A stretch of DNA of 64,000 bases from Hyaloraphidium curvatum SAG 235-1 (GCA_025558095.1 JAIVFI010000031.1:62001-126000); one strand, 5' to 3'. Counted from the first letter of the stretch, positions 12,216 to 63,856 are shown. Numbers and translations: made by a program. The notes: a model not told the origin generated them from the sequence alone.

Positions 12216-12249
12216 CGTCGTGGAGGGGGACGGCGTGGGCGAGGGTCGT

Positions 12250-15401: not shown

Positions 15402-15451
15402 GTGCAGTTTAACACCGTGTCTCAAACACTGAGTCACCCAATATCCCCAAC

Positions 15452-18788: not shown

Positions 18789-19765
18789 ATGGAGGAGAAT
18801 GGGATGGTGGCGGAGGGCAAAGCGAACGGCGCCGCGGGTTCGGACGCCCCGCCGCCAGTGCCCCCCGCCGCGGACGCGTCTTCCGCTCATTTGGGGCCCC
18901 GTCAACGCGCCAAAGCGAAAACCCAACATCTCGATATTGTCGCCGAGGCGTATTCCGTCGCGTCAAAGTCGACGGCACACGGCGTGTGGCGCATCTTCGA
19001 CCGCCGCCGGCGCTGGGCCAACCGCATTTGCTGGGCGTTCCTGTGGCTGACGGCCTTCTCGCTGTTCGTCACCTACTTGGTGCTGCAGACCGAGTACCTG
19101 GCCAGTTTCCCCACATCGACCCTGATCACGCAGGTGTTTGTCTCGCCGACGCCGTTTCCGGCCGTCAGCGTGTGCATCTCCTCGCTGAACCGCACCACCG
19201 TCGCCGCATTCCTGCGGCCGCCGCGGGGCTCCACCGTGCTGGAGCAGGTCGCGGACATCTTCAACGGCTCGGGCGTCGCGTGCTTCTACGGGCTGCACAC
19301 CGCGCGGCAGCTGCTGCGCTACGAGATCCCCTCGGACGGCTCGGGCTGCTCGGCCCGCTCCACGGTCAGCTTCGTGGACTACCCCTTCGCCTGGTCCCCG
19401 ACGCTGTGCATCACCACGCCCGGCGACCTGGTGGCGGACCAGCCCGGCTACACGCTCACCATCGTCGGCCGCGTCCCGGGCCTGGGCGTCCTGGACCAGC
19501 TCACCTACGGAATCCGCCAGGCCGACGCCCAGTTCCAGCCGATGCTGGCCAACCTTCTCTCCACTGGCATCCACACCCGGGAACGGTTCCACATCGGCAC
19601 CACCCGCAACATCCGCAACTGCGACCCCCAGCCTGGCGGGCAGCCCAAATGTCTCGCCGACTTCCAGCAGCAGTGCGTCGAAAAGGCCTGCTCGTGCCGC
19701 TATCCCGCCGTTGCCGGCAATGTCTCGGGCTCCTCCCTCTCCGACCTGGTCGAGCAGCTCCCCGG
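18789..19765 (+). pseudogene. Truncated DEG/ENaC channel paralog lacking the distal ectodomain and TM2
   Basis: Highly similar to 30972-31940 up to LSDLVEQLPG, after which the ORF runs into unrelated sequence. Confidence 0.85.
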
Positions 19766-20514
19766 CTGGGGGACGGCGGGGGCGACGGTGTCCTTCCGCA
19801 TGGTCGAAATGAACCCGGACCCCACCCATTTTATTGAGTATTCTCATCTCGAAATCGATCGCTTCTCTAGGCATCGTCACCAGCCTTCCAGGCCTGCGCA
19901 AAGTCGGACTCCACCCCCTGTCCCACCGCCGCCAGCCGACCCGCCACCGTCAGCAGTGCTGCGTGGCGTCCGGGCGCCTGCACCGTCGGGTAAGGGCGTT
20001 TGGGTTTACCCGACTGCACAACGCTGGGGTGAGCCGGCAGATGGCTACACTACCGCAGCTGGAGCTCAGGTTTTGGATCAAACATCGGTGTGGTGCTTTG
20101 TTCAGGGAAAGCAGATCGGGATTTCCGGGATGTGCATGCTGGAGCTTCTCGTCAAGCACCGGCCGAGTGGACGCATGATTCCGGCCAATTTCGGCGGCCG
20201 GCATTTGGAGCAGGGTGGGAAGGGAAGCGCAGGCGTGCCGTTCTGCGGATCCGTCTTGTTCAGGGAAACGATGCGAGAGGCCTTTGGAAATGGAAACCCA
20301 GCACACCCTCACGTCAGCGGTCATGCCGCCCCTGATCGTAAGCTAACGTCGAACGGTCCGCCCATGCCATAGAGAGTTGACGTGATTTACACGTAGTTAG
20401 CTATGATCCGTGTGGTGCTCTTCTCCTCCTCTCTTTCCTCCTCCGTCTTCGCCCTCGAGCAGTTTCAAACTTGTCCATTACACGGCACCGGCCAATCACG
20501 TTTAGGAATTGTTG

Positions 20515-23328: not shown

Positions 23329-23794
23329 ACTCGTGATCAACAAGTTGTGGACTTCCCACTTGATTCGCCGAGCGGGACCGACTCACCGATCGGGCGGCAA
23401 GTTATTCGATCTCTTCGAGGCCCCGGCCAACGACAGCGCTTAGCTCATCCGCATCGCCGTTTCACGATCTATTCTCCACGGCAACTACGTCTGTACGTCC
23501 CGCCCCGCTCTTGGATTCCCGTTGTCGTTGGGCCTTTGAGCCGGCCCTGTCTGCCCTTTGGGTGCACTGTTTCACCGCACGCAGGCAGGAGTGACCGCAC
23601 GTCTGTTCGTGCTGCACCGTCTTACCGCTCGGGCCCATCGGAGGCGGAAAGCGTCCTTGCGCGAATCGGAAGACTCCGACCACACCTTCCTCCGGAGGCG
23701 CGAATCGTGCCACACCGGCCTCCGGCAGCTCGCAGATATCCATTAAGCGGCAATTGTCCACGACCGAGGGCGCATCGGACCTCCGCCGCCCGCG

Positions 23795-24820
23795 ATGTCC
23801 CCCCCCGCGACGCCGATCCGAGTCGCCCTCGACTGGACGCCCAACACGCTCCACTCCGGGTTCTTCGTCGCCCTCGACCGCGGGCTGTACGCCGCGGCCG
23901 CCCTTGACGTGTCGCTCGTTTCGCCGGCCGAGGACGCGTACAAGGTGTCCCCGGCCAGGAAGCTCGCCGCCGGGGATGCGGACTTTGCCGTCGCGCCGAG
24001 CGAGACGGCCATCGCCTACGCGCTGCTGCCCAAGGACAAGGGGCTGCCGCGGCTGACCGCCGTCGCCGCCCTGGCGCAAAAGGACACGAGCGCCGTCGTC
24101 GTCCGCTCCTCGTCGGGGATCGAGCGGCCGGCGCACCTGGACGGCAAGAGCTACGCGTCGTATAACGCACGGTTCGAGGGGCACATCGTCCGCGCCCTCG
24201 TGCGCGCCGATGGAGGAAAAGGGGACGTGCAGGAGGTGTTCCCGCCGCGGCTGGGGATCTGGGACACCGTCCTGAACGGGGAGGCCGATTCGACGTGGGT
24301 GTTTTTGCCGTGGGAGGGAGTGCAGGCGCGCCGGGCGGGGAAGGATCTGCGGGCGTTCGGGGTGGAGGGAGCGGGGGTGCCGTACGGGTACACGCCGATC
24401 TTGCTGGCGCGGCACGGGGATCTGGAGGGGGCAAAGGCGGAGGCATTGAAGAGGTTCATGGAGGCGACGGCGGAGGGGTACAGGATCGCGGCGGCGGATC
24501 CCGGGGCGGTCGCGGCCGCGCTGGCCAAGGTGCCGGAGCTGGCGGGGCAGGAGGAGTTCCTGGCCGAGAGCATGGCGGAGCTCGCGCCAGCGGTGCTCAA
24601 CGGTGCCGGCAAGTGGGGCGTAATGGAGGAAGCCCGCTGGGCGGCATTCCTCGGCTGGTTGGGGAAGGAGGGGCTGCTAACGGCCCCGGGGGCGCGTGGT
24701 GGTAAAGCGGTCGGGGTGCCCCTCGAGGGATCGAGCCATGGGGCCGAGGAGGTGGTGACGCTGTCGGTGCCGGTGCCGTTGCGGGCCGCCGACCTCTTCA
24801 CGAACAGTCTCCTGATTTGA
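23795..24820 (+). CDS. NMT1/THI5-family, ThiY-like periplasmic-binding-fold protein, intronless
   Basis: LDWTPNTLHSGFFVALDRGLY, PAHLDGKSYASY, ADSTWVFLPWEG and PYGYTPIL. No CCCxC motif of true THI5 and no signal peptide. Confidence 0.88.
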   Translation: MSPPATPIRVALDWTPNTLHSGFFVALDRGLYAAAALDVSLVSPAEDAYKVSPARKLAAGDADFAVAPSETAIAYALLPKDKGLPRLTAVAALAQKDTSAVVVRSSSGIERPAHLDGKSYASYNARFEGHIVRALVRADGGKGDVQEVFPPRLGIWDTVLNGEADSTWVFLPWEGVQARRAGKDLRAFGVEGAGVPYGYTPILLARHGDLEGAKAEALKRFMEATAEGYRIAAADPGAVAAALAKVPELAGQEEFLAESMAELAPAVLNGAGKWGVMEEARWAAFLGWLGKEGLLTAPGARGGKAVGVPLEGSSHGAEEVVTLSVPVPLRAADLFTNSLLI

Positions 24821-27884: not shown

Positions 27885-28004
27885 TGTGGCGGATGCGCGA
27901 TGGTGCCCCGCTTGTCGCTGCATCCTCGCACGCTTACTTGGAACAACTTGATCCGTGCAGTGTAACACCGTGTCTCAAACACTGAGTCACCCAATATCCC
28001 CAAC

Positions 28005-28997
28005 ATGGCAGAGCCGCACGCCGCCGTCCCGGCAAAGCAGCCGCTCGGCGAGTTCGAGCTCATTTCCAAGTACTTCACGCGCCCCGCCCGCCGCGCGGTG
28101 CTCGGTGTCGGCGACGACTGCGCGCTGCTCGCCCCCCGCCCCGGGCGGCACCTCGCCGTGTCAACCGACATGCTGGTTTCCGGCCGGCACTTCTTCCCCG
28201 ACGTCGACCCCGAACGGCTCGGGAAAAAGTGCCTCGCGGCGATTCTCAGCGACCTCGCTGCGTGCGGCGCCGAACCCCTCGCGTTTACGCTGGCGATTTC
28301 CATCCCCGAACCCGACGAGGCCTTCCTCGCCGCCTTTGCGCGCGGGCTGGTGTCCGCCGCCGATTCGCACGACATCGAGCTCGTCGGCGGCGACACCACA
28401 AAAGGCCCGCTCGCGATCTGCATCACCGTGCTCGGCGACGTGCCGATCGGCGCCGCGCTCCTCCGCTCCGGTGCCGGGCCGGGGGACGACATCTGGGTCA
28501 GCGGGGTGCTGGGAGATGCCCGCCTCGCGCTCGACTCCATGCGCGGATTGCTCCCCTTGGGGGGGCGCGAGCTCGACGCCGTGGGGCCGGCGCTGGAGAC
28601 GCTCGAGCCGCGGATCGCGCTGGGCGTCGCGCTCCGCGGCACCGCCACCTCCGCGATCGACCTCTCGGACGGGCTGTTCGGCGACCTCGCGCACATCCTC
28701 GAGCGATCGGCCGTCGGAGCGACCGTGGTTTTCGACTCGATTCCGCGGAGCGACGTGCTCGCCGCACAGCCCGCGAACGTGCAGAAGACCTGCGTGCTCT
28801 CGGGCGGGGATGACTACGAGCTGCTGTTCACGGCCAGCCCCGAATCCATCGACACCGTGCTGGAGGCAGGGCGGACGGCAAAAATGGCATTGACGAGGAT
28901 CGGGCGGATCGAGGCCGAGGGCGGCCTGCGGGTCGTGGACGCGGATGGCGTGCCGATCGGCGACGTCGGAGGCTCGTACAACCACTTTCGCCCGTGA
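28005..28997 (+). CDS. thiL: Thiamine-monophosphate kinase (bacterial type), copy 2, intronless
   Basis: Same ThiL motifs as 15452..16444. Confidence 0.93.
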   Translation: MAEPHAAVPAKQPLGEFELISKYFTRPARRAVLGVGDDCALLAPRPGRHLAVSTDMLVSGRHFFPDVDPERLGKKCLAAILSDLAACGAEPLAFTLAISIPEPDEAFLAAFARGLVSAADSHDIELVGGDTTKGPLAICITVLGDVPIGAALLRSGAGPGDDIWVSGVLGDARLALDSMRGLLPLGGRELDAVGPALETLEPRIALGVALRGTATSAIDLSDGLFGDLAHILERSAVGATVVFDSIPRSDVLAAQPANVQKTCVLSGGDDYELLFTASPESIDTVLEAGRTAKMALTRIGRIEAEGGLRVVDADGVPIGDVGGSYNHFRP

Positions 28998-30566: not shown

Positions 30567-30971
30567 GGGCGTCATGGTGCAGAGCGGGATCCGTGCCCGG
30601 TTCGACGGGCCGGGATTTGGGGGGGTATCGAAACCCTGTGTGACTCGAATGGCACATGTTCTATAGATTGCTTCTCGCTTGCGAGTAGATCATCCCCGGC
30701 TTCTCGAGCGGACCTCAACGTCACCAGCCGGAGGTCACCACGCACTCACGTTGGGCGCCACATAATGTTGCTTTACCCCTCCCGCAAGGTAGATCGGACA
30801 TGGGACCACTTCATGCAGGCCTTTCGTTCTATCCATTGATAACTAGACCGTCGCTCGGCAAGCTGCTACTCTCGCTATCCCGAGCGACGCGGGAAGCCCC
30901 GACGGTCACGTGACTTGGCGTCACCCGGACCCGCTGGCGTCGGAACCGCGTCGTGCACTCCATTCGATGCC

Positions 30972-32488
30972 ATGGAGGAGAACGGGACGGCGGAGGAGGG
31001 CAAAGCGAACGGCGGCGCGGGTTCGGACGCCCCGCCGCCCGTGCTCCCCGCCGCGGACGCGTCCTCGTCCCATTCGGGGCCCCGCCAACGCGCCAAAGCG
31101 AAAACAGAGCACGTCGACATTGTCGCCGAGGCGTACGCCGTGGCATCAAGGTCGACGGCGCACGGCGTGTGGCGCATTTTCGACCGCCGCCGGCGCTGGG
31201 CCAACCGCATCTGCTGGGCGTTCCTCTGGCTGACGGCCTTCTCGCTGTTCTTCGCCTATCTGGTACTGCAGACCGAGTACCTGGCCAGTTTTCCCACGTC
31301 GACCCTGATCACGCAGGTGTTCGTGTTGCCGACGCCGTTCCCGGCCGTCAGCGTGTGCATCTCCTCGCTGAACCGCACCACGGTCGCCGCGTTCCTGCGG
31401 CCGCCGCGGGGCTCCACAGTGCTGGAGCAGATTGCGGACATCTTCAACAGCTCGGGTGTCGCGTGCTTCTACGGGCTGCACACCGCGCACCAGCTGCTGC
31501 GCTACGAGATCCCCTCGAACGGCTCGGGCTGCTCGGCCCGCTCCACGGTCAGCTTCGTGGACTACCCTTTCGCCTGGTCCCCGACGCTGTGTATCACCAC
31601 GCCCGGCGACCTGGTGGCGGACCACCCCGGCTACACGCTCACCATCGTCGGACGCGTGCCCGGCCTGGGCGTGCTGGACCAGCTCACGTACGGCATCCGC
31701 CAGGCCGATGCCCAGTTCCAGCCGATGCTGGCCAACCTCCTCTCCACGGGCATCCACACCCGGGAACGGTTCCACATCGGCATCACCCGCAACATCCGCA
31801 ACTGCGACCCCCAGCCGGGCGGGCAGCCCAAATGCCTGGCCGACTTCCAGCAGCAGTGCGTCGAAAAGGCCTGCTCGTGCGGCTACCCCGCCGTCGCCGG
31901 CAACGTCTCCCTCTCCGACCTCGTCGAGCAGCTTCCCGGATCCTGCGCGGACAAGTACCTGAACGGCACCTGCGCCATGGCCCAGCACGGGTTCCCGTGC
32001 CCCTTGTGGATCCCCGGCACCAACTGCACCCTCTCGCAGCTCTGCGGCCCGGACGCCGCGCAGCGCGCCTGCCCGTACCCCTCCTGCGACGAGACCGCGT
32101 TCCCCTCTGCCAGCAGCTTCGCGCCCCTCGATGCTGGGGAGCTCGCGGCGCTTGGGGTCGACGCGGGGGCGGCCTCGGGCGCGTTCCTGCTCTCGGTGGT
32201 GCTCGAGTCGCAGATGGTCAGCAGGGTGGACGAGGAGCCGGCGTACACGCCGCTGAGCTACTTCGGTTCCGTCGGCGGCATGGTGGGTCCGACTCTGGGG
32301 TGCGGCGCGCGATCGGGTTGGCTCAACGGCGTTCCACGTGGTGGCAGATGAGCCTGCTGCTGGGGTTCTCTGTGCTCACGGTGTGCGAGTGGATCGAGGG
32401 GTGCTGCGTCATCGGGCGCAAGGTGGAGAGGGCGGCGACCGGGGGTTACGAGGACGTCATCGCACCAGAGGGGGCCGGAGCGGGGTGA
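30972..32488 (+). CDS. DEG/ENaC (amiloride-sensitive sodium channel family) subunit, about 483 aa, intron 32283-32347
   Basis: Pre-TM1 STAHG; TM1 RICWAFLWLTAFSLFFAYLV; FPAVSVC; Cys-rich thumb (CLADFQQQCVEKACSC...CPYPSC); EEPAY; TM2 YFGSVGGM|MSLLLGFSVLTVCEWIE. Confidence 0.9.
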
Positions 32489-36620: not shown

Positions 36621-36965
36621 TCAGACCCCGCACACGGTCCCCAGCACCACCCCCACGCCGTTCCCCCTCGCGATGCTCCACGCGCCGAACACCACCGTGA
36701 GCGCGCCCGCCGCCGCCGCCCTGAGGGAACCGAACGACACGGGCCCGCCAAACACCCTCGCGCGCAGCCGTTCCGCGCGCGCGAAGCCGGCGGGAAGGTC
36801 CGCGGCGCCACGCAGCGCGTCCGCGTCGGGGCGCGGGGAGCGGGAGAGCAGCAGCCGGATGCGCTGCTCGGCGACGAGGTACAGCTCCGTCACCTTTTCG
36901 ATCTGCAGGTTGGCCGCGGCGTTGAGCGCGAGGTCGCACCCCGTCGCGGCGAGGCAGACGGCCAG
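36621..36965 (-). pseudogene. C-terminal remnant of another member of the 29082 multi-TM family
   Basis: AAANLQI...ARVFGGPVSFGSLRAAAAGALTVVFGAWSIARGNGVGVVLGTVC aligns by eye to AASNARI...ARFLGFEVTYGALRALVATLLTVGFALWGMLRGLGVTVVLESYC. Confidence 0.7.
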
Positions 36966-37297
36966 CTTGGAATCTCCCCTCAGCTCCGTCCGCGTACAGA
37001 AATCAATTCCCAAAATCCGATTCTACAGCAGCTTCACACGAGGAGAGCACAAGGGTTGCGGCGGCGGAGTGGGAGGGCCGACGCGTGACGGGCCGTGACG
37101 CGAAAGATAAACAACGCGTCGTTCACCTTACACGGCCACACTTGAGACCGCCGTCTCTCGCGGAAAGCTACCAGAAGACCGGATTTTATCGCTCCTCGAT
37201 CTTCCCGACGAGGTTAACGCCGTGTGCTCCCGGATTTAGGACCGCGTTAGAATCCCACCCCGGAGCTCGGCGTCCCGGTCTCGTTGCGCGGCCGCCG

Positions 37298-38805
37298 ATG
37301 GAGCCAATTTCGGAAGCATTCTTCCGCGCATGCCAGCAGGGCAACGCGGCACGCGTCGGCGAGCTGCTGCGGACGCCCGGCGTGGACGTCAACCGGAAGG
37401 ACCCCGATGGGCGGACGGGGTTCAGGATGGCGTGCCAATGCCGCCACGCAGATGTCGTCCGGCTCCTGCTGGCGGACGGGAGGGCGGACGTCAACATGGC
37501 GGACGAAGGCGGGGCGACGGCCTTCTACGTGGCATGCAGCCAAGGGGACGTTGACCTCGTCGCCATCCTCCTCCACGACCGGAGGGTCGATGTGAACGCG
37601 GCGGACAGGAACGGAGCCACCGGGTTCTACTTGGCGTGCCAAAACGGGGACCTCGCCCTCGTTCGGGTCCTCATCGCCGACCCCAGGGTCCAGGTCAACC
37701 TCAAGGACGGCAACGGTGCCACGGCCTTCTATGTCGCCTCCGCGGGCGGCAAGGCGGACGTGGTCCGCCTCCTCCTCGGCTGCAGCCGGGTGGACATCAG
37801 CATCGCGGACGGCAACGGTGCCACCGGGCTGGAGGTGGCCCGGGCTTTCGGGCGGGACGACGTCGTGCTCGCCATCGAGCGGGCGATGGACGCGTGGCAG
37901 GCCCGGGCAAAGGCCGCGCCGGCCATTTCGCGGCCGACGAGCTCCTTCTTGGCGGACGAAGCCGACGTGGACATCGACCTTGCCGCGCCCCTCGGGACGG
38001 GGTATTTCGGCACCGCGTACCGCGGAACGTGCTTCGGGATGGCCGTCGCGGTGAAGGTGATCAACGTGGATCGCTTCGGCCCCGAAAGGGCGAGGCAGGC
38101 GCTCGAAGACGAGGTCAAGGTGTGGCTCGGCCTGCCTCACCACGACAACAGTGGGTGGAGCCTTCGCAAAGCTCCGCGGTTACGGACTGACGGAGACCAT
38201 CCGCCCAGTTTGCCCGCTCACAGGCTACAGGTTCGATCCTACCTACCTCGTGACCAAGCTCTGCCAAGGCAAGAACATGACTGACTACCTAGAGGCAAAA
38301 TCCTGGGACCGTGACCTGGCCGTCCGGCTCCTCCGAGACACGGCGGCGGGCCTGGCCTTCCTCCACGCCAAAGGTGTCATCCACAAGGACCTCAAAGCCC
38401 AGAACGTCCTCGTCGATCTCCGCGGCGGCGAAGCTGTGGCCATGATCGCGGACTTTGGCCTGGCCAATGTCCGCAGATCCCTGCAGGCCACCCCGGACGG
38501 CGTCCCTTCGAGCTACGAAGGCCCCGGCGTCGTTCGGTATGCTGTGCTACCAGTGTTTCGCCCGCGAAGCTCCGTTCAATGACACGCGGCCCGAGGCGGT
38601 CGGCGTCAGGATATGCCGCGGAGAACGCCCGCAGCGGCCCTACGACGTCCCGGACGCGCTGTGGAGGATGATGCAGCTCTGCTGGGAACCCGACCCGGCG
38701 AGGCGGCCCGCCGCGACGCAGCTGCTGCAGGTGCTGCAGAAGCTGGCGCAGGGCGAGGACTCGGCCGCCTTGGCCCTCGCCAAATCCTTCGGTGGCGGCC
38801 GATGA
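37298..38805 (+). pseudogene. Ankyrin-repeat and TKL-type protein kinase gene, disrupted near 38525 (subdomain VIII-IX missing, frameshift)
   Basis: 5-6 ankyrin repeats, LGTGYFG, VAVK, HKDLKAQN and DFG. The intron starts at 38151. No APE motif. The C-lobe (SFGMLCY...CWEPDPARRP) is in another frame. Confidence 0.75.
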
Positions 38806-40677: not shown

Positions 40678-43600
40678 TCAGGCAGCAAAAGCGACCTCCC
40701 TGCGCACCGCTCGCGCCCCAGCCTCCCCCCCGGGCGACAGCACGAGCTCCGTCACAAACTCGGCACCCGACGGCAGCACGAACTCCGCGTCCACGCTCGG
40801 CGACCACGAGTCGTGCCCTCCGACACCCATCATCCGCGAGTCCACGTGCACAAACACCTTGTCGGGGTCGGTGACGAGCTCCCAGTCGTGCCTGGCCTTT
40901 TCCAGCACCGCCAAGGGGTACGGCAGCGCCGAGAAGCCATACCCGTCGCGCAGCGCCGCGTCCCGCGCGGCGCATGCGATCCCCAGCCTGCCCGCGGGCC
41001 CTGACAGCGCGGCCCAACGCATCCCGGCCCGCCATCCGCACTCGGAGGGGTAGATGTACGGTTCGTAGAGCCCCTCGGGGGTGCTCACCCATATACCCTT
41101 GCGAACCGCGGACACGCGGTCGGGGTAGGCCTCGTACGGCCCCAGACCGGCCCAGGTGACGGCCGTTGCGGCGGCCTTGGGCACCGCAAAGGCGACTCCG
41201 GCGCGCGGGAGCGGGGGCAGGTGCGCCGGGGGCGACACAATGGAGGAGACGCGAAGGTCGCCGTTGGCGAGGAACTGGTAGGTGACTGTGCATGGAATAG
41301 CCTCGCCCGCGAGCGCGACGCCCTCAGGGGCCACGAGATCAAACGCCACCTTGACGACCGCGCCGCCGTCGAATGCTTCGGCGGATGCGATCGCGCTGCT
41401 GTCCTTGCCGCGGCCCTTGCGGTCCATGTTGAAGATGCCCAGCGCCTTCCAGCGCGCGGCGTACGACAGCGGCCCGCCGCCGAGGTCGTTGTCGGTGGAC
41501 GCGCGCGCGATGCAGACGTCCAGGGGGCCGGCGAGGAGCTCGGTGCCGGCAGCCGTCTTCCACGAGAGGAGGCGGCCGCATGCCGTTCCGATTTCCGCCG
41601 AGCTCCCGTCCGCGAGGCGGACCTCGAGCTTGTCCTGCCCCCCCATCAGCTGCGCGTCCGCCTTGGGAGCCTGCTGCGCCTCGCCGTGTGCAATGTGGGC
41701 GGCGACGAAGGCCGCCACCGCCTCGTTCAGCTCCGCCACGTCGAGCGATACCCTGCAGATCTCGGTCCCCTGCGGCACAAAAACCGTGCCCTCCCTGGTC
41801 TCGGCGAGCACCTCAACCCATGCCTCGCCCAGCTTCCCTGCATCCTCCCCCGACATCCCCAGCAGGGCCGAAAGCGCCGCCGGGTCGCCTGCCACGGCTG
41901 AGCTCCACCTTGACCACAGCCTCCCGAGCGCAAACGTCTTCTCGCCCTGCGCCTCGATATCCCCGGCGCCCTGCAGCTCCGCCCACTCCCCACCCTGATC
42001 CTTTTCAGCATCGCACGCGCACCTGGCCCTGATCCGGAGGTCGGCCAGGGTCTCAAAGTCCCTCCAGCTCTTGATCACGATCGCACCGCCCTTGACGCTC
42101 GCCCCGACAGGGCTCTGGATGCCCCACGCCTCCCTTGCCGACGGGTGGGGCACCCTGTCGGGCCCGAGGATCCCGTTGACGCAGAACTGTCCCGAATTCG
42201 GCACGTCCCCAAAGTCCCCGCCGTACCCGTACGCCTTCCTCCCGTCCCGCGGGAACTTGTCCGGGAGGTTGGGCAAACCGGGCTCCATGAGCAGCGCCTG
42301 GTCCACCATGTCCCAGATGTACCCGCCCTGCATCCTGGTCCTTTCGCGCTGCCGGAACATGCGCCAGTAGGACTGCATGCAGCCGCCCGAGTTGCCCATA
42401 GCGTGCGCGTACTCGCACAGCACGAGCGGGCGGCCGCGCGGGTCGGTGTCGATGTGCGACTGGCACTGCGGAGGGCGGTTGTACATCGGGACGATGAGGT
42501 CGGTGGCGCTGTTGAGCACGCCTCCGGATTCGTACCTACGATGAATTGCGAAGGTCAGGATCACACGCGAGTTGAGCAGCGAAGAGGGCACGTACTGCAC
42601 CGGCCTCCTCCCCCCGTCCCTCGCCCTCAGCCAATCCGCCGCATCCTGCACGTTCCTCCCCATCCCGCTCTCGTTCCCCACGCTCCACCCGATCACGCAC
42701 GGATGGTTGCTCTCCCTCGCCCACATCCTCGCGCATCGCGCCAGGTAGCCGTTCCTCCACTCGGGGTTGTCCGAGAGCACCCCGGCGGGCTGGCTGACCG
42801 CCTGGAACCCGTGCGTCTCGATGTCCCCCTCGACGCAGAGGTATATCCCCGCCTGGTCGCACAGCTCCGCGAGGAGGGGGTGGGAGGGGTAGTGCGCGGT
42901 GCGGATGCCGTTGATGTTGAGCGCGCGGAGGGTGCGGACGTCGTCGAGCATGATCTGGAGGGAGAGGGCGCGGCCGAGGGTGGGGTGGATTTCGGGGCGG
43001 TTGACGCCACCGATGGTGATCGGTTTACCGTTGAGGGTGAGCATGCTTCGGGGGGGCGGCGTGATGAGGACGTCATTGAAGCCCACGCGCAGGGACTCGG
43101 CGTCCAGCGGCGAGGTGCCTGAGTCGGCGTCGGCGCGGGAGGAGTGTAGCGTGATGACGACAGTGTAGAGGTTGGGCGATTCGGCGGTCCAGGGCTTGGG
43201 GGAGGAGATGGCGATGGTGCCGCGGGCGCCCGAGGGCGATTCCAGATTGGAGGGCTCCGCTTCGCACGAGACGGGATCCCAGATGGCGCAGGCGGCGTCC
43301 CGGGCGGGGCTGGAGAGGTCGGTCTGCAGGTCGGCGACGGCCACAGCGAGCGGCGAAGAAGCGGAGGCGCCACCATCTGCTCCCTCGAACACCTCAACGC
43401 GCACGCAGTGCGTGCCCGGAGCAGCGCCCTCGCACAGGACCTCGAAGTCGATCTTGGCCCCGGCCAGCGTGGCGCGGGTGCGGTAGTCGGCGATGGCAGC
43501 CTTGGGCTTGTGCACCAGGTAGACCTCGCGGTAGATGCCCGAGAGCCACCACTTGTCCTGGTCCTCGAGGTACGACCCGTCGCACCATTTGAGCACCTCG

Positions 43601-44610
43601 ACGGCGAGCAGGTGCTCCTCCTTGGACCCGTCGAGAAGGTCCGTGACGTCGAACTCGGCGGCTAGCGCCGAGTCCTTGGAGAAGCCGGCGAAGTTGCCGT
43701 CGACCCAGGCTCGGAAACACGCGTCGACACCCTCGAAGACGAGCAGGATGCGGCCGTCGGCGGGGGACCAGCCCTCGGGCAGGGAAAAGGCGCGGCGGTA
43801 CAGGCCGGCCGGGCTGGGGCCGCGCTCGCGGGGGGCGCGGGCGACGAAGTCGTGGTCCATCCAGTCCTTGTGCTCCATGATTCCGCGGTCGTTGGGCTGA
43901 CAATTGGTGGCGGAACGATAGGAACGTAATCAGTCAGTCTCGGGGGAACTCAGACCCGCCCACTTCGGCCCCACCTGAGTGACAAACTTGCCCGTGCGCG
44001 CGGCGCGAGGCGGGTCCAAGTCAAAAGGATAAGAAGTGTTGGTGTAGATCGGGATATCGCGCTGCACGGCGGGCAGGCCCGACGAAGGGAGCTGCCAGTG
44101 CGACGGTACCAGTATCGGGGCGAAGCCTTCGGGCTGCAGGCCTTCGTAGACCACGGTGGCAGTCCTGGCATCGAAGCCGGGCTCGATCCAGCCCTGCGGC
44201 GCGTCGGCCGGGTCGCCGACCAGCAAGAAGTCCCAGCCGGGCGCGGGCTCGCCGGGCTCGCCGGTCAGGAGGAGCAGCTGCGGCGTGTGTTCACGCGGCA
44301 CCCGCGACGGGTCCTTCGAGAACGCCTCCCAGAACTTCCGAGCTTGCTCGGGGGTGCGAAAGGCGCGCAAAGGCGCGTGCGCCGGGCGGCGGCGCCTACC
44401 GGCAACTCTCGGATTTTCGGCATCGGGCGCGTCGGGCGCCGGCAGCGCGGGGAACGAATCGGCCAGCCGCCGCTCGAAGAACCGGAACGGCAGCCCCGGC
44501 GGCGCGAGCAGCCCGAGCAGGAGCCCCGCAAAGCGCTCGGCGAACGCCGTGCCGCGCGGCCCGTACAGGAACCGCAGCAGCACGGACGACAGCCAGTCGG
44601 TGAGGCCCAT
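40678..44610 (-). CDS. Glycoside hydrolase family 2 beta-galactosidase (LacZ-like), intron-containing
   Basis: PIYTN..YPF, FEGVD, YLEDQDKWWLSGIYREV, GVNR.E, RTAHYP, WSVGNESG (acid/base), LCEYAHAMGNS (nucleophile), GGYIWD and MGVGGHDSWS. Confidence 0.93.
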
Positions 44611-46409: not shown

Positions 46410-48298
46410 TCATCCACACTCTTCGCAGATGCAAATCACGCTGCTGCATCCCTCGCAGAACGGCATGCTGTCGGCGCCGCAAGTCCGGAGCCGAGACCGC
46501 CATCCTTCGATCGCCATCTCCCGGACAATGTGCTCGATGACCTGGCACGAGTAGCTGTTGCCGAGCTGCTGGTGACGCGTCAGGTTCGAGTCCTGGTCCT
46601 CAGTTCCGATGAGCGTGTAGTTGTCCGGGAAGCCGAGGAGGCGCTCCTCCTCCACGGGGTGCAGGGGCCTGACGCACGGATCGGGATGCGGCGACTTCCT
46701 GTAGGGCTGCAAGACCATATCCGGATCGTAGACAAGCGAGCCATGGGTTGACCTGTCCAGAGCAGCCGACAGTGAGCTTTTGGGCCGGCGAGCAAAACGT
46801 GGGGAACGAACCGCACGATGCAAAGTGCCTTTTTTCGCCACGACTCCAAAGGCTTGCCGCTCATGAGCGCGTCCAACATCGTTGGATCCGGAACTGCGCG
46901 CTGGAGCGGCTTCACTGCAAAGCAAGTCCAATCTGGAACCGTTGTCAGAGAGACACGCAGGGCTCGTTCAGCTTCACTCACAAACTCGGTCCCTCCTGCA
47001 TCCCGAAACACGATCTGCTTGGTAGCGCACAGGATAGACACCCAGCTCTTAGGGAATTAGGAGCATGAGGACCACGCAGCGTTCGCTCGAGAGCGCGACG
47101 ACTCACCTTTGGAAATGATCTCTAGGTCGTTGGCGGGCATTCCGTACACGTTCTCAACAACATAGCCGACTTTTCCGTCGCCGTTTCGTGAATTGAGCTT
47201 CCTGACCAAGGTCAGGATTCGTGGCTATTTGGAAGGAACTGAATGTGAGAAATGAAGTCGCGATAGCGCAGCCACGACTAACGATGTGGAAAAAGAGGCC
47301 GCTTCGGGATCCTTTGAGGCCCAGGCGGTCCGGTCCTTTGGCCTTTGAAAGATCTTGGCAAGGAAAACCGGCAACCACAACGTCGATCGGGCCCAGCTTG
47401 GAAAGGAGCTCCTCGGTGACGTTCTCGACCCCGCCTTGAAACTGGTTTAAGAAAAAGCTGCCACGAACGTCCTAATGGAAAGCTTACCCAGGTGTATGAC
47501 GTTGTCGTGGTTTTTGTCGAGCACCTGCACGCACCCCTGATCGATCTCGCACGAAAACATGCGCCCGACCTTGATCCCCGCCCGTTCCAGCCCCACACGG
47601 TCCCCGCCGATGCCCGTAAACAGCGAAAGCAAGCTTATTCCTTCGAATGACTCGCTGGCGAAACCGTTGGGGATCTGCGGAGGCTCGATCGTGACCGACG
47701 GGGGAGAGAGCACAGCTGGAGGCGGAGCGGTCTTTAGGAAGGGCTCGAGCTTGTCCGCCACGACGTCGAAATGGTCCGATGCAATCGAGAGATCAATCGA
47801 CACGCGCATGTGGAACTTGGCGTTTGCCGCTATGACGACGCTGCCCTTGACGAAAGACACCACTCCGAGGTCCAAAAGAGGGCCGAGATGGTGGGCAAGC
47901 GGCCTCGGCACGAAGCCAAGCTGATTCCGCTCTGTTTCTGACTCCGTAGAAGCACCTCCAGCGAGTCCATGATCGACATCGAGAGCGCGCGCGATAGCGA
48001 TCGCGTTCGCGTCGTGGGGATTGTCCCTTTGCCGCCGAAAGACCACCGCCTCGCCAACGACCGCTGCTTTCGCGCGAGATGCGTGCGCAAATGCTCCGGC
48101 AACTTGAATGGAAGGGAGTACGAAGGCGGTGGTCGGACCACGGGCCGAATGCGCTGAGGCGCCTTCGTCAGCCCGGCTCTTCTTTTCCGGGCGATCAGGC
48201 GGGGCGGAGCGACTGACACGCGGTGCGAGGAGCGAGCGAGAGGAAACAAAGCCTCCGAGATTGGGCGTCGCCGGCTGTTCCTCGCGTCTGCGCTTCAT
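46410..48298 (-). CDS. HIRAN domain fused to a DNMT3-like C5-cytosine DNA methyltransferase, 5 introns, C-terminal Cys cluster
   Basis: HIRAN: VAG...GEAVVFRRQRDNPHDANAI...LGFVPRPLAHHLGPLLD. MTase: LSLFTGIGG (I), SCEID (II), GPIDVVVAGFPCQDLS (IV), SGLFF (V), VVENV (VI), RRDRVYW (VIII), EERLLGFPDNYT...RHQQLGNSYSCQVIEH (IX-X). Confidence 0.88.
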
Positions 48299-48388
48299 CG
48301 CGTTGTCAGCTGTTCGTTCGAATCATCACGCGCGCCAATCAGGTAGACCAACAGGCAGAGCTTCGAATCCTACGACTACGATCAAGCA

Positions 48389-52913: not shown

Positions 52914-54108
52914 TTACAAAGTCGCTTCGGCGCCCTTAATGCCCTGGAAGAGTTCGTATCCGCTCACATAGTCCAGATCCACGACCTCCACCTGTCGAGG
53001 GCGGAAAATCAGCCAATGCCCTACATAGGAACGTTGCGCGAAATCACCTTTCCCTTGGTCCTCTTCGACACCTCCTTGCCGACAATGGACAGATCCAGCT
53101 TCTTTCCCGAAAAGCCCGGCAACCAGTTGTCGTGGTGCCCGACGATGACCCTCTTGAGGCGCGGGAGGAGGAGCTCCGCCTGATCGGCGCCAAATCCGGC
53201 CAACGATCCCTGCAGGGGCTCGCCATTCTTGTTCGGGCGTCCGGCCTGCAACGATCGGAAAGGGTCAGATGTCGCCTTCGAGGCAGCAATCAGATCTTAC
53301 CAAGGCAAAGATGGCGACGTCCGTAGGCGGCGCGTGGCGCTCCAAGATGCCCGTCCAATGACCGGAAGTGTCTTGGTACAGCAGGGTTCCGAGCGGCGTC
53401 TCGAAATGGTAGAGGAATGCCCCGCCGTCGCCTTTCGCCTTTTGGTCGGAGACCCGAAGGTGCTCCCTGGCCTCCTCTCCAATCGTGAGCATGTTCTTGA
53501 ACATCTCCCCCAGCATCCGCTGCCTCTCGTGCCACGGGATCCCGAGCTCCCCGATGCACACCTCGTCCGCGGGCCCGCCCATGCCGCCGCCCTTGACCCA
53601 AACGCACGAGTGCAGGCTGGGGAGCACGTTGACGAAGACGTCGCCGTAGAGCTGGATCCGCTCGCCGCCGGCGACGTGGATGAGCTGCTTGTCGGGGACG
53701 CCGCAGGTGCGCATGATGCGGCAGGATTCGTACGATCCGATTATGGTGGCGCCCGTGCGGAGGGCGATCCGCTCGGCTCCCCAGAGGTGGTCGAAGTGCG
53801 AGTGGCCGACGACAATGAAGTCGGCCTCGTCGATGTGCTCGGGGAGGATCAGGGGGTCTGGAGCGCACCGGTCGAGGAGCTTCAGCTGGGCCCGACGACG
53901 CCCGCTTCTGGAACCCACCAGGCTTGTCTGCGTTGTCGACGCGGTCCAGGTACGCATCCAGGAAGATGACGAGCGGCTTCGCCCTGCCGGCGGCCGGCAG
54001 CGTGAGCCGATACGTGGAGCATCCTGCGGGCGACAGGTCGTCAGCCCGGGACGGACGGGAAAGAGAACGCGAGGCATCCGCACCGAACCAGTCGAGCTTT
54101 GCGGCCAT
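52914..54108 (-). CDS. Metallo-beta-lactamase-fold hydrolase (UlaG-like), copy 1
   Basis: LDWFG, IFLDAYL, GHSHFDH, PSLHS, YQDTSG and GHHDNW across 4 introns. Confidence 0.88.
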
Positions 54109-54506: not shown

Positions 54507-55714
54507 TCACAAAGCAGCGGCGCTCTTGATGCCCTGGAACACCTCGTACCCATTCACGTACGGCAAGTCGAAGATCTCCACCTGGAAAAGCCCCGTGCTC
54601 GGATCAAGACGTGTGCAACGAATGACATGGCGAACCCACCTTTCCGCCCGTCCTTTTCGACACCTCCCTGGCCACCGGCGCCAGGTCCGTCCTCGGGGCG
54701 GAGAAGCCGGGGAGCCAGTTGTCATGGTGTCCTACGATAACCCTCTTGAGCCGGGGAAGGAGGAAAGCCGCCTGATCCGCGGCGAAGCCGGCCAGAGATC
54801 CCTGCAGGGGCTCGCCGTTCGAGTTTGGCCGGCCAGCCTGAAGCGGTCCGAAACAGTGAGCCTTCGGCCATCTCTGACAAGCAGCAATGATGTACTCCAC
54901 CAGAGCAAAGATCGCGACGTCAGTCGGCGGAACATTGCGCTCCAGGATGCCCGTCCAGTGGCCGGAAGTGTCCTGGTACAACAGGTTCCCGTGCGGCGTT
55001 TCGAAATGGTAAAGCATGGCCCCGCCGTCGCCATGGGCCTTCTGGTCACTAGCCCGAAGATGCGCAATGGCCTCGGCCGGCATCGTCATCATCTTCTTGA
55101 GCAGCTCGCCCAGCATGCGCTGCCGCTCATGCCAAGGCACGCCCAGCTCCCCGATGCACACCTCGTCCGCGTTCCCGACCATGCCGCCGTCCTTGACCCA
55201 CACGCAGGAATGCAGGCTCGGGAGCACGGAGACGAAGACGTCGTCGGCGAGCTGGATCCGCTCGCCGCCGCCGACGGGGATGAGCTGCTTGTCCGGGATG
55301 CCGCAGGTCCGCATGACGCGGCAGGATTCGTAGGATCCGATGATGGTGGCACCGGTGCGTTGGGCGATCCGCTCGGCGCCGTAGAGGTGGTCGAAGTGCG
55401 AGTGGCCGACGACAATGAAGTCGGCCTCGTCGATGTGCTCGGGGAGGATCAGGGGGTCTGGAGCGCACCGGTCGAGGAGCTTCAGCTGGGCCCGACGACG
55501 CCCGCTTCTGGAACCCACCAGGCTTGTCTGCGTTGTCGACGCGGTCCAGGTACGCGTCCAAGAAGATGACGAGCGGCTTCGCCCTGCCGGCAACCGGGAG
55601 GGTCAGCCTGAACGTGGCACATCCTGCGGGAGACAGACGACGGAGATTCGTGAGATAGGCTACAGGAAGACAACAGGACGCGTCCGTACCGAACCAGTCG
55701 AGCTTCGCGGCCAT
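54507..55714 (-). CDS. Metallo-beta-lactamase-fold hydrolase (UlaG-like), copy 2 (tandem paralog)
   Basis: Same motifs and intron positions as copy 1. Confidence 0.88.
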
Positions 55715-59456: not shown

Positions 59457-59762
59457 ATGTGCTCCGCCGCCGCCACCAACGCCAAGTCCGCCGACGCCGC
59501 TGACCTCATCTCGAAGGGCGGCGGGAATCCGCCGTATCAGCCGGTGCCGTCGGCGCCGGCGGGGACGTTCGTGCGCCTCGAGGACGTGCTCGAGAGCCCC
59601 ACGTTCGGGCTCTCGCCGGCCTACGTCGCCACGCTGGTGGCGCGCATCGAGCAGCGCTTTGAACTTCATGGCCGCGCAGCGCCACCACCATCACGGCGCG
59701 TGCCACTACCACGGCCACCATCAGCAGCAGCAGCAGGCGCAGCCCTGTGGACAGAAATGTAG
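59457..59762 (+). CDS. Small ORF (101 aa) overlapping the deaminase ORF in a different frame
   Basis: ATG after an A-rich leader, and a protein-like segment FVRLEDVLESPTFGLSPAYVATLVARIEQRF. Confidence 0.35.
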   Translation: MCSAAATNAKSADAADLISKGGGNPPYQPVPSAPAGTFVRLEDVLESPTFGLSPAYVATLVARIEQRFELHGRAAPPPSRRVPLPRPPSAAAAGAALWTEM

Positions 59763-60525
59763 GGAAGCCGCGTGCTGCCCGGCCGGCGAGCCCGGGCCCT
59801 GCCCGCCGGTCCCTCCCCCTGTGGCGCCCAAGCGCCGCGCCCCCTCCCCTTCCTCCTCCGACAGCGACGCCCCTTCCCACTCCTACTCCTCCCTCTCCAG
59901 CAGCAGCGACGACGACGACCCGCACCCCCCCGGCCGGCGGCGCCGCCTCCCCTCCTCGTCCCCCCCTCCCCCTCCCCCCCCCGCCATCCCCCGCCGCTCC
60001 ACCCCCCGCTCGCACAGCTACATCCACGTCTGCGTCATCCTCTCCCGCAAGGACGGCTCCGTGCTGGCCGACGGCTTCAACAGCGAGGTCTCGGTGCGCG
60101 AGGCCACCCCCCGCCGCGGCTTCTCCATGCACGCCGAGGAGATGGCCCTGGACAAGCTCCTGCGGCTCCCCCGCTCGGAAACGGGCAAGCGCCTGCGGTG
60201 CGGCGTGGACGTGGTCTCGCTGCGCGTGAGCAGGGCCATGGTGGTCGGCATGTCGCGGCCGTGCCTGCGGTGCGCGGGCAGGCTGCAGAGCCAGGCGGCC
60301 ATGGTGCGCCGGGTGTTCTGGTGGGAGGCCGGGAAGGAGGATGCGGGCGGGGGGTCGGTGGTGCAGGCCAGGGTGGAGGAGCTGCAGGGGCACGCGGAGC
60401 ACTCGACGGGGGATTTCTTCGTCAAGAGGGGGAGGAGCAAGAACTACACCTGCCCGGCGGTGCAGCAGTACCGCCCGCCGCAGGCGCAGGGCAAGTTCGG
60501 GTACTACCGGGCGAGGTACGGGTAG
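59668..60525 (+). CDS. Zn-dependent cytidine/dCMP deaminase-like protein with low-complexity N-terminus
   Basis: HVCVIL...GFN...SMHAEEMAL...VVSLRV...MSRPCLRC (HAE and PCxxC). Confidence 0.75.
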   Translation: MAAQRHHHHGACHYHGHHQQQQQAQPCGQKCREAACCPAGEPGPCPPVPPPVAPKRRAPSPSSSDSDAPSHSYSSLSSSSDDDDPHPPGRRRRLPSSSPPPPPPPAIPRRSTPRSHSYIHVCVILSRKDGSVLADGFNSEVSVREATPRRGFSMHAEEMALDKLLRLPRSETGKRLRCGVDVVSLRVSRAMVVGMSRPCLRCAGRLQSQAAMVRRVFWWEAGKEDAGGGSVVQARVEELQGHAEHSTGDFFVKRGRSKNYTCPAVQQYRPPQAQGKFGYYRARYG

Positions 60526-61461: not shown

Positions 61462-62417
61462 CGCGATGCGATAGGGAGGGGAGGGGACGGTACGTTTGTT
61501 GCAGGCGGCAGCGGCGTCGCCGGTAAGTCAACGACTTCCAATCGTTGAGCTTGCCGCGAAGCCAGACCCGTCACGACGTTGGACGGGCCTTATGTGGTCT
61601 CCAAGATTAGCTTTGGCGTTGGAAGCAAGGTTGATTGATTGCTCGACGGCAGGCTGCAGGAAACTGGAGGGGTCGCGATCGCCGTCACCGTTTGCCATCT
61701 GCGGAGACACTTTTTCTAGATTGGATTGTTTCGTGGATGGCAGTAGCTGATTGTACAAGGAGGCATCCGACTTTCTGCTTCGCGTGCCTCGTCAAGTCAA
61801 GAAGCTGAAGGACGCCGCGTTCGCTGCTTGATTGTATCAAACACCAATTCCAAGACTAGCAAAGCCGTCCCCATATGACATGGTCGTTCGCATTTCCGCT
61901 GTGTTGCTGCTCGTTTTGCGGTCCGCTCTTGAGCTTCGGAGCGGGAACTGGAGCGAGCGGCGTCGGCCCTCTTGAATTCCGGTCCCCGAATGCATGGACC
62001 GTGCCAAAACCCAATGTTGACAGGACGTTCCATGCGCAGCAGGATGCTCCGACGGCTGGCTGACGTCAATTCGTGCGGAATGCGACGCAGCATGCGACGG
62101 TCCGGAGCGGCTGGGGATCACGAGCTCCGAAGACCTGCAAAGTCGAGGCGACGATACAGATGCCGTTCCAAGTACCCTTCAAGAGCACGGGGGAATTCAC
62201 AGTTGCAATTGCTGACGACTCACCGTGTCGATTTTCGGGCGGAGGTGTCCCTAGCTCGGGCCGGAATTTCGAGGATCCAGGGACGCAAAAACGTCGAAAC
62301 TCATGCCAAGTGTCCCTCATCACGTCCTCAGCCCCCCGCTGCGCCCCTGTCGAAGAAACCCCACCTCGCAACAGCAGCCGCCTGCCGATAGTCGCTGCAG
62401 GCACCCAACTCGTTAAC

Positions 62418-63856
62418 ATGGCGCCGACCTCGTTCCTCAGGCGGGCGCTGCTCGCCGCCGCCGCGTCCTTGGCCCTTGTCCCTGCTGCGGTAGGTCGCAC
62501 CCCACGGCCCCTCGGCGGGCCGGCCGCGGGCATGCCATGCTCACCTTGCTTCTGGCAGAGCGCCTTCGTGGAGGGCACCTTCACCGCCGCCTCGGGCCCC
62601 GCGGTCAACGCGACCACGGTGACCGTCGGCCTGTACGCCGCCAACGCCTACGAAATCCTCCCCAACTCCAACACCTTCTACTTCTCCGGCTACATGTGGC
62701 TGCGCTGGCCGGCCACGCTCGAGAACGAGCCCGCGGCCTCGTTCGAAATTATCAACTCGGTCGACTCTTGGGGTCTAACACTGACGCCCATCTCGGAGAA
62801 CGCCACGATCTTCTCCAACGGCGAGGCCGGCAAGCAGTTCAAAGTCCAAGGCCGCTTCTTCCAGCCGTTCCAGATGTCGTCTTACCCCCTGGACTCCCAA
62901 ACCCTCGACATCGTCATCGAGGATACGGACATGACGGCCGACAAGATCTACTACGTCGCTGATCGCGAGATGTCGGGCAAGGACGTGAGCTTCCAGCTGC
63001 CCGGCTGGAAGATCACGGGCATGACGTTCGCCGAGCAACTCCACGAGTGGGTTCATCCCCCATCGGCGGCTCCCGCATGCGCTGATCAGCCTGTGATCCG
63101 CTAGCTACAAGACCAACTTCGGCGACCCGGACAACGCCAACGCCAACCTGTTCTCCGCCGTCAAGATCTCCATCGCAATCGAGCGGCAGGCACAGCTCTT
63201 TGCCTTCAAGCTCCTCATCCCGTGCGTTGCCGACCGCATGCCCCGTGATCTCTGCCTAACTCTGTTGCCGCCTGCGTCGTGTTCCATCCTTGCTCCCCCT
63301 GCACCCCCGCCCCGTAACCCATGCTCGGCTCTCTCGCTTCGAAAGCCTGATCCTGGTCCTGATCACCGGCTGGCTCGCCCTCGTCCTCAACCCCCGCTAC
63401 ATCGAAGTCCGCACCGCCATGTGCGCGACCGCCCTCCTCACCACGGTCTTCCTGCAACAATCCGCCTCGGACCCCTCCCAGACCACCAGCCTGACCATGA
63501 TGGACACCATCTTCATCGTCATCTACTGCGTCATAGTGATCACCTTTGCCCAGGTGATCTGGGACAACAATCGCATGAACAAGGTCATGCACCCCGGCGC
63601 GCACCACGGGCCCATGGCACCCACCGGCCTTATGGAAATCAAGACTGTCGACCGGAAGGCAGACGGCGAGGTTGAGGCCATCAAGAAGGACGTGGAAGCC
63701 GCCGTGAACGGGGCGCCGGCCGTGTCGGCGGCCGACGACGACTACTCGGAGCACCCCACCGTCAAGTCGATCCGCAAGTGGGACCTGATCTCGCTGGTCG
63801 TCCAGGTGATCGTGACCATCATCGTGATCACTGTTTTGGTCGTCACCTTGTCGTGA
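62418..63856 (+). CDS. Pentameric ligand-gated ion channel, Cys-less Pro-loop (GLIC/ELIC-like), introns at about 62490-62558, 63047-63104 and 63222-63346
   Basis: Signal peptide; VTVGLY; TFYFSGYMWLRW; YPLDSQTL (Pro-loop, no flanking Cys); LPGWKI; YKTNFGDP; pre-M1 R; FKLLIP|LILV (M1 Pro); M2 RTAMCATALLTTV; LTMMD (M3); C-terminal M4. Confidence 0.88.

Follow-up and report, generated by a model that had tools for sequence, protein, structure and literature searches.

A likely bacterially derived family of Cys-less pentameric ligand-gated ion channels in the fungus Hyaloraphidium curvatum

Do fungi possess ligand-gated ion channels of the pentameric kind (pLGICs), and if so, where could such channels come from and what might open them? 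The question is raised by a gene at positions 62418-63856 (+) of a 64,000-nucleotide stretch of Hyaloraphidium curvatum DNA (hereafter, the window), which an initial annotation, made from the sequence, read as an intron-containing, Cys-less channel of the GLIC/ELIC type, while noting that the family is regarded as absent from typical fungi. The latter point agrees with the published record: in the available portions of both sources, Jaiteh 2016 detected no pLGIC in Fungi (PMC4795631) and a 2021 review repeats the absence (PMC8634148), while the accessible part of a 2024 diatom survey holds nothing on fungi (PMC11085791). No earlier fungal member was found in the literature that could be reached, subscription journals being mostly out of reach.

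Gene structure, transcription and genomic setting

The interval 62418-63856 (+) runs exactly from start codon to stop codon and comprises four exons and three GT..AG introns of 69, 58 and 124 nt. Joining exons 62418-62489, 62559-63046, 63105-63221 and 63346-63856 yields 1188 nt with a single open frame of 395 residues. The spliced protein agrees in every letter with a database record (P0001), 'hypothetical protein DFJ74DRAFT_772701 [Hyaloraphidium curvatum]' (KAI9009086.1), whose gene lies on a 572,809-nt contig. The organism of this record is a fungus (Fungi, Monoblepharomycota), so the non-fungal host that would have counted against the initial annotation did not turn up.

Exon 1 (62418-62489, +) contains the start codon and most of a predicted signal peptide (residues 1-24); the hydrophobic stretch spans residues 6-30, the corresponding helix of the structural model residues 4-19, and cleavage was placed, by eye, near residue 26. 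Intron 1 (62490-62558, +; 69 nt, GT..AG) is in phase 0, in frame and free of stop codons, and is the same in the gene model of P0001. The beta-sandwich extracellular domain (strands 1-9), with N-glycosylation sequons N41 and N105, is encoded by exon 2 (62559-63046, +), which by itself matches GLIC at E 1.4e-5. Intron 2 (63047-63104, +; 58 nt, GT..AG) is followed by exon 3 (63105-63221, +), which encodes loop C (Tyr188, Phe203), pre-M1 Arg214 and the first half of M1. Intron 3 (63222-63345, +; 124 nt, GT..AG) interrupts the Pro226 codon of M1, and exon 4 (63346-63856, +) supplies the remainder of M1, M2, the M2-M3 loop, M3, a long M3-M4 loop, M4 and the stop codon.

A 1318-nt contig of sequencing run X1 passes straight from 63046 to 63105 and from 63221 to 63346, skipping introns 2 and 3, and is otherwise without differences, while contigs of two DNA-type runs (X2 and X3) retain intron 3. 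X1 is a single run from a single study, and its label as RNA is a guess; in genes nearby, a further 15 introns are absent from it (15 spliced joints). The X1 contig begins at 62573, 3' of intron 1, and X1 cover is absent at 61566-62438. Intron 1 is accordingly a predicted intron, called from its GT..AG ends, signal-peptide logic and the database gene model. X3 and X4 contributed small shares; the latter, a freshwater metagenome, reaches 191 nt of exon 2 at a depth of 2.4 and differs there once, which is too little for use.

The gene is flanked by genes for a cullin and for ribosomal protein L12, which we take to be of the mitochondrial type and which is transcribed away from the channel gene. 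Third-position GC content (GC3) of exons 2-4 is 0.91-0.92, compared with 0.88-1.00 in eight exons of neighbouring genes, whose introns measure 45-82 nt. A bacterial contaminant is ruled out by the spliced GT..AG introns, the eukaryotic neighbours and the host-like GC3, and a pseudogene reading was likewise rejected. We conclude that this is a real, nuclear, spliced gene of a fungus: the domesticated nuclear gene of the initial annotation, with three introns whose removal leaves M1-M4 in frame.

Several other genes of the window were recorded. Two DEG/ENaC-like (amiloride-sensitive sodium channel) genes, at 18336-20369 (+) and 30843-32348 (+), match Pfam ASC at E 6e-11 and 6e-16, respectively, and share 91% identity across 1060 nt; the second gene aligns with ASIC1 at E 6e-6 in the first transmembrane region and weakly ahead of the second such region. 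They constitute a second animal-type channel family in Hyaloraphidium curvatum. Each lies, in a duplicated block, downstream of an uninterrupted copy of ThiL, a bacterial-type thiamine-monophosphate kinase (15413-16441 and 27966-28994, both +; 96% identical, PDB E 2e-91), and an NMT1/THI5-like gene at 23747-24817 is located between the blocks, a possible further transfer together with a thiamine cluster. At 40681-43929 (-), an uninterrupted frame of 1083 codons in an otherwise intron-rich genome contains all GH2 beta-galactosidase domains and is a candidate for recent bacterial transfer. C5 DNA methylase fragments lie beside a HIRAN domain at 46413-48322 (-), possibly in one split gene. Teneurin-like EGF repeats (13108-14145, -), a beta-lactamase-fold protein (10662-12269, -) and an ankyrin-repeat kinase (36926-38802, +) were also observed, as was a tandem pair at 53038-54108 and 54630-55714, with 82% identity across 1086 nt and a weak match to a metallo-beta-lactamase fold. 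Finally, a frame at 59458-60525 (+), between the cullin and L12 genes, is covered by RNA-type contigs and has a weak, below-cut-off match to a cytidine/deoxycytidylate deaminase zinc-binding region (E 8e-5).

Family membership and relatives

An AlphaFold model of the protein (mean pLDDT 88.1, pTM 0.75) contains a strand-rich domain at residues 43-214 and helices at 217-239, 245-266, 269-307 and 363-394, which correspond to M1-M4 in the normal order; a hydropathy scan (threshold 1.5) detected M1, M3 and M4 and missed M2. M4 (residues 368-395) is encoded at 63770-63853 (+). In a Foldseek search with the model (E 4e-18), every row listed was a pLGIC. Structural alignment with VIA-align gave Z 22.2 and 2.9 A over 284 residues for GluCl and Z 22.1 and 2.8 A over 279 residues for GLIC, with GABA-A and glycine receptors tied, and the top Atlas match (0.95) was a bacterial Neur_chan cluster. 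A single-sequence search of the PDB reached E 0.01 or better for 141 sequences; the best 60 of these 141 were all GLIC or GLIC chimeras, and GLIC (E 1e-7) was the best wild-type match. A profile built from 83 relatives matched ELIC at E 3e-23 and GLIC at E 1e-20, and reverse searches had pLGICs alone among the matches listed.

Pfam was less sensitive. The unspliced pieces matched 0 families (4 of 4 pieces), and the whole protein gave a PF02931 row at 12.1 bits against a cut-off of 26 and no PF02932 row. The Neur_chan profile check proposed earlier stayed below its threshold. All six bacterial relatives that were scanned likewise score below the cut-offs, which may be the cause of the group having been overlooked.

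The Pro-loop YPLD (residues 133-136; 62883-62894, +) is aligned with those of GLIC and ELIC, has no flanking cysteines, and its Pro occurs in all 274 other alignment rows. In the accessible text of Jaiteh 2016, [F/Y]PxD marks the tip of the beta6-beta7 loop, and its proline is the only absolutely conserved residue of the family (PMC4795631). The pair of cysteines that would make a Cys-loop, flanking the Pro-loop with a spacing of 13 residues, is missing: the only cysteines are Cys252, the first in the chain, and Cys287, both in the membrane domain, and an animal-type Cys-loop receptor is thus excluded by an extracellular domain without cysteine. Six of the seven residues in Table 1 of that survey, as far as the table is available, are plainly present (Tyr133, Pro134, Asp136, beta9 Trp174, pre-M1 Arg214 and M1 Pro226; PMC4795631), and the seventh, the M2-M3 proline, may be represented by a displaced Pro269, at 21' in a shortened loop. 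A YKTNFGDP segment is found at residues 188-195, and M2, which starts from Arg248 and contains the TALLT motif, carries the basic 0' residue and the Leu at 9' used to recognise the family (Arg248, Leu257). A DUF4436 identity was also considered and rejected: PF14494 gave no row for the protein at E up to 1, nor, with the limit set at E 0.5, for any of 16 members of the alignment, and the topology is M1-M4 in the normal order.

According to the available part of Jaiteh 2016, a candidate is validated by two of three lines: reverse search, topology, and alignment to GLIC and GluCl (PMC4795631); here, the reverse searches and the structural alignments to GLIC and GluCl both point to a pLGIC. We conclude that the protein is, with near certainty, a Cys-less pLGIC subunit, whose fold, signal peptide and surface location are predicted. 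The structural features named by the initial annotation, namely the signal peptide, the beta-sandwich ectodomain, the disulfide-free YPLD, the YxTNFGDP segment, the M1 Pro, the M2 R..TALLT pattern and four transmembrane helices in a pLGIC fold, were all recovered.

Of 7997 candidates scored in a database search with P0001, 83 proteins emerged as matches. Apart from P0001 itself, these 82 have an identity of 33-53% to it, and the sole organism-named one among them is from an Actinomycetota bacterium. When prokaryotic genomes were searched, relatives made up 213 of the 401 pattern matches, and 79 loci (L001-L079) were retained; the best of these loci belong to Actinomycetota bins, several of them from river or lake samples by title. 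Bacterial relatives such as P0009 are up to 53% identical over residues 30-305, as expected for the prokaryote-like channel described at the outset, whereas identity to animal receptors, from structural alignment, is 11-16%. Searched with a profile, 1.84 billion representatives yielded 8204 matches at E 0.001, of which the best 150 were taken further; organism names were checked for 30 proteins, 24 of them among the best 150 of the 8204, and by these names three further proteins belong to H. curvatum. Among 72 full-length close bacterial relatives, 36 have a lipobox-like cysteine within the first 50 residues (by a simple pattern, with no control), and these N-termini are possibly lipid-anchored.

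The gene is not alone. At least four pLGIC paralogues are present in H. curvatum, a minimum count drawn from protein databases; they lie on four different large contigs and are 28-40% identical where compared. Besides P0001, they are P0096 (KAI9012236.1, 397 aa), P0193 (KAI9024880.1, 475 aa) and P0126 (KAI9022094.1, 241 aa), the last apparently partial or incompletely annotated; tblastn of the window found no second pLGIC copy there. What had been presented as one gene is therefore one member of a family. Seven unnamed environmental proteins (P0070, P0071, P0083, P0130, P0147, P0209 and P0213) share the M2 and loop features of the paralogues. Five of the seven are N-terminally short despite contigs of 10-37 kb, as expected of gene calls split by introns, and we therefore read the seven as eukaryotic, though without proof. 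Among metagenomes, a scan for eukaryote-like relatives found none in 327 pattern matches, and a second scan gave one weak locus (L080), which on re-test had no pLGIC match.

Pore, ligand pocket and coupling loop

In the pore helix M2 (residues 245-266; 63401-63466, +), alignments and the model place Glu246 at -2', Arg248 at 0', Ala at 2', Thr at 6', Leu at 9', Phe at 13' and Gln at 16'; M2 also carries Asp at 20'. The helix aligns without gaps with that of GABA-A alpha1, from which prime numbers were assigned by the usual convention. Glu246 is aligned with the GLIC glutamate preceding M2, and the position is acidic in 252 of 274 other rows. From this position, we are reasonably confident that a Glu ring at -2' would select cations. 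The length of the M1-M2 linker resembles that of anion channels, and charge selectivity outside animals is, in the accessible text of Jaiteh 2016, described as generally unreadable from these positions (PMC4795631).

A candidate ligand pocket was delineated by comparison with ELIC. There, according to the accessible portion of the source, the amine contacts Glu77 and Glu131, and the response was lost when Ala replaced Glu77, Ile79, Glu131, Phe133, Tyr174 or Phe187 (PMC3119659). In the profile alignment, these six residues correspond to Glu87, Ile89, Glu145, Thr147, Tyr188 and Phe203, so that five of the six principal-side residues essential in ELIC are kept in kind, with Phe133 to Thr147 the exception. 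Glu87 (62745-62747, +) is Glu in 225 of 274 other rows and Glu145, in loop B (62919-62921, +), in 265 of 274; position 147 is mostly Ser or Thr in relatives. ELIC Phe19 and Tyr38 correspond to Tyr50 and Tyr69, in an N-terminal stretch that aligned as a weak second domain, and ELIC Val40 to Trp71, which is Trp in 273 of 274 other rows and could stand in for the lost loop B aromatic. Pocket residues are conserved across the alignment rows of the clade. On this analogy, we lean towards an amine (GABA, an alkylamine or a polyamine) binding at the subunit interface between Glu87 and Glu145, in a box formed by Tyr50, Tyr69, Trp71, Tyr188 and Phe203. The earlier GLIC/ELIC label holds insofar as the channel is Cys-less and prokaryote-like, and the pocket is more ELIC-like than GLIC-like. 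Bacterial gene neighbourhoods (20 loci, 94 ORFs) contained no conserved partner gene, and hence no ligand hint. At one of the 20 loci, in an Actinomycetota bin, a microbial rhodopsin gene lies directly downstream of the pLGIC gene (L014:1076-1873, +).

Given the acidic ring at -2' and the retained pocket residues, our best explanation, held at somewhat less than even confidence, is an amine-gated cation channel at the cell surface. Three features speak against it: Thr147 in the place of ELIC Phe133, the anion-like linker length and the absence of Pro at 23'. We consider it fairly unlikely that a channel of the same family and origin instead answers to a non-amine stimulus, whether the protons that gate GLIC, a metal ion or some different small molecule, or has an anion-selective pore. 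In the single-sequence PDB search no wild-type protein matched better than GLIC, but the profile puts ELIC above it (3e-23 versus 1e-20); the loop B aromatic is missing, but throughout the clade both amine-contacting glutamates and both aromatics of loop C are retained, and GLIC is gapped in loop C; and the linker has the length found in anion channels, but -2' is acidic, not Pro. As for prediction in general, the available text of Jaiteh 2016 holds that ligand and selectivity do not follow from such motifs (PMC4795631).

The paralogues bear on whether the amine-gated channel would be built from this subunit by itself. With residues of both the principal and the complementary side of the pocket, it has what a homopentamer would need, and its paralogues are spread over four contigs; an obligate subunit of a heteropentamer, with ligand sites between unlike subunits as in animal receptors, is for these reasons quite unlikely. 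Such an assembly would draw on the number of paralogues (at least four) and their divergence (28-40% identity where compared), on the remodelled M2-M3 loops that all of them have, and on P0193, where Tyr and Asp replace the equivalents of Glu87 and Tyr69, as could be the case in a structural subunit.

A departure from the family norm is seen in the coupling loop. The M2-M3 loop with the start of M3 (residues 267-279; 63467-63505, +) is one residue shorter than in bacteria, with Pro at 21' and not at 23'. Among 272 other rows, 268 have a span of 32 residues from Arg0' to a conserved Asp where M3 starts, and 250 have Pro at 23'; in the five full eukaryote-like rows, the span is 31 or 28. Neither these five nor six eukaryote-like fragments have Pro at 23', and the loop is shortened in all 11. 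P0096 and P0193 have no proline in the loop, which in P0096 is deleted by four residues. This proline is 88% conserved in the family, common but not universal, in the accessible text of Jaiteh 2016 (PMC4795631), and in the available part of Bertozzi 2016 its change to Gly still permits activation of both ELIC and GLIC (PMC4778918). The change in the loop therefore need not abolish gating. The deviating loop is not among the features listed by the initial annotation. The cytoplasmic M3-M4 stretch is also enlarged, to 74 residues between Trp298 and Asp372 by alignment (63560-63781, +), and has low to moderate pLDDT at 311-360; it measures 53-176 residues in the eukaryote-like group, whereas in 271 other rows its median is 20 and it never exceeds 47.

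A protein that has drifted from gating, to become a leak or a binding receptor or scaffold signalling through its enlarged cytoplasmic loop, would account for the shortened, 23'-Pro-less loops of all 11 eukaryote-like rows, their long end branches in trees and the M3-M4 stretch of 53-176 residues against a median of 20. It is, however, improbable: none of the five full rows shows a change at pore residues 0', 2', 6', 9', 13' and 16' or at the interface residues, and the tolerance of ELIC and GLIC for Gly at this place, as given in the accessible text (PMC4778918), speaks against it as well.

If the amine-gated channel is the correct reading, amine binding between Glu87 and Glu145 would be coupled through YPLD, the Asp136-Arg214 pair and the remodelled M2-M3 loop to a hydrophobic gate of Leu9' and Phe13'. 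The open pore would pass cations, selected by the Glu ring at -2', and the resulting signal, speculatively, would be depolarisation or calcium entry.

Origin and comparison with known systems

Phylogenetic trees were used to place the fungal proteins among bacterial Pro-loop receptors. Early trees left out 32 rows of less than 290 residues and 22 near-duplicate cluster members, and the labelled rows include no named protist Cys-less receptor. In a 279-row tree, P0001 and P0096 fall in a 75-row clade (support 98), where nine of nine labelled rows are Actinomycetota; a separate quick tree gave the P0001 clade a support of 93. Five full eukaryote-like proteins in a 43-row tree lie inside an Actinomycetota clade (94/99), not together, and a single eukaryote-like clade on this set is not rejected (p 0.358). 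With six fragments added (41 rows), all 11 eukaryote-like rows group at 98/90, in a joint clade at 100/99 where seven of seven labelled rows are Actinomycetota, subject to a long-branch warning. The fragments had been chosen for shared M2 traits, so the analysis was repeated without trait columns and the three longest rows; in the resulting 38-row tree, the eukaryote-like group has 89/69 and the joint clade 98/98. Moving the group to outer bacterial rows is rejected (p 0.021), as is joining it to Chloroflexota rows (p 0.0079), whereas a position sister to the actinobacterial clade is not (p 0.238), and both nested and sister placements fit. Other Actinomycetota rows fall outside the clade that holds the fungal group. 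In the 41-row tree, unnamed sequences interleave with the fungal paralogues, which suggests that the family is older than the species.

Since the fungal and unnamed sequences lie inside or beside a clade with Actinomycetota alone among its labelled rows, transfer from an actinobacterial lineage is likely, probably in a single event followed by duplication. Of the two origins entertained earlier, acquired or retained, the clade supports (98/98 to 100/99) and the rejected outer placement (p 0.021) favour acquisition from bacteria, and retention is not favoured. It is quite probable, in our judgement, that one transfer from a donor related to freshwater Actinomycetota came first, and that the gene then gained introns, adapted its codons, duplicated and lengthened its cytoplasmic loop; the fall of the eukaryote-like group to 89/69 without trait columns and the warning that long branches may be meeting weigh against a single origin. 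Vertical descent from Cys-less receptors of unicellular opisthokonts, which the available text reports in Monosiga and Capsaspora (PMC4795631), taxa that our trees do not contain, is very improbable, and a contaminant of the assembly is excluded: names are known for just 24 of the best 150 representatives, but the protein is about 50% identical to actinobacterial proteins and lies deep inside a clade of many bacterial phyla, and its spliced introns, neighbours and GC3 are those of the host.

What emerges is a family of four-helix pLGICs in a fungus, with a coupling-loop variant of its own and likely of bacterial derivation. A transcribed member with paralogues fills a gap in a receptor inventory that lists fungi as lacking the family, and transfer from actinobacteria offers a route for the patchy pLGIC distribution that the inventory leaves unexplained. 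A biological role is, in the accessible text of Jaiteh 2016, known for no pLGIC of a unicellular organism (PMC4795631); the specific ligand prediction makes such a role testable. In addition, it offers, as a group, a natural experiment in gating without the canonical M2-M3 proline and in the origin of a large cytoplasmic loop from a bacterial channel. A more far-reaching reading, which we regard as unlikely, is that an aquatic fungal lineage, independently of animals, turned a bacterial channel into a receptor family with introns, a glycosylated outer domain, a large cytoplasmic loop, a new, proline-free M2-M3 loop and diverged subunits assembling as amine-gated (GABA-like) heteropentamers. 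If true, the multi-subunit family would, together with the DEG/ENaC-like genes of the window, form a neuron-like set of fast ligand-gated channels.

With animal Cys-loop receptors (GABA-A, GlyR, GluCl, nAChR), the fungal protein shares the fold (Z about 22), an M2 gapless to GABA-A alpha1, a large M3-M4 loop and several paralogues; it differs in lacking the disulfide and in an identity of 11-16%, and its enlarged loop and its paralogues seem to have arisen separately from the animal ones. Protist Cys-less pLGICs are likewise eukaryotic and sparsely distributed; the accessible part of the survey places seven protist sequences among prokaryotic branches with weak support and reports none in Fungi (PMC4795631), whereas the bacterial neighbourhood of the fungal group is both specific and supported. 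Uncharacterised pLGICs of Actinomycetota, Chloroflexota, Chlorobiota and Cyanobacteriota, up to 53% identical, are alike in pocket and M2 residues, but in them the M3-M4 loop is short and 23' still has Pro, and half of those compared (36 of 72) have a lipobox-like cysteine, while the fungal N-terminus has none and the fungal protein bears its two sequons. Proton-gated GLIC of Gloeobacter (PDB 3eam and mutants) matches at E 1e-7 and Z 22 (2.8 A over 279 residues), with its pre-M2 glutamate aligned; it is 18-19% identical, has no loop B glutamate, and its loop C is shorter in the alignment. ELIC of Erwinia/Dickeya (PDB 2vl0, 2yks; profile E 3e-23) is, like the fungal protein, a Cys-less Pro-loop subunit, and Glu77, Ile79, Glu131, Tyr174, Phe187, Phe19 and Tyr38 are matched in kind, as is the acidic residue immediately before M2. 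The differences are Thr for Phe133, a nearly invariant Trp for Val40, an acidic ring one place earlier (-2'), an M1-M2 linker two residues longer, and the Phe13', Gln16', shortened M2-M3 loop, long cytoplasmic loop, introns, sequons and fungal host that ELIC does not share. By analogy, the fungal channel may work like ELIC, although with Thr147 in loop B we do not class it as an orthologue.
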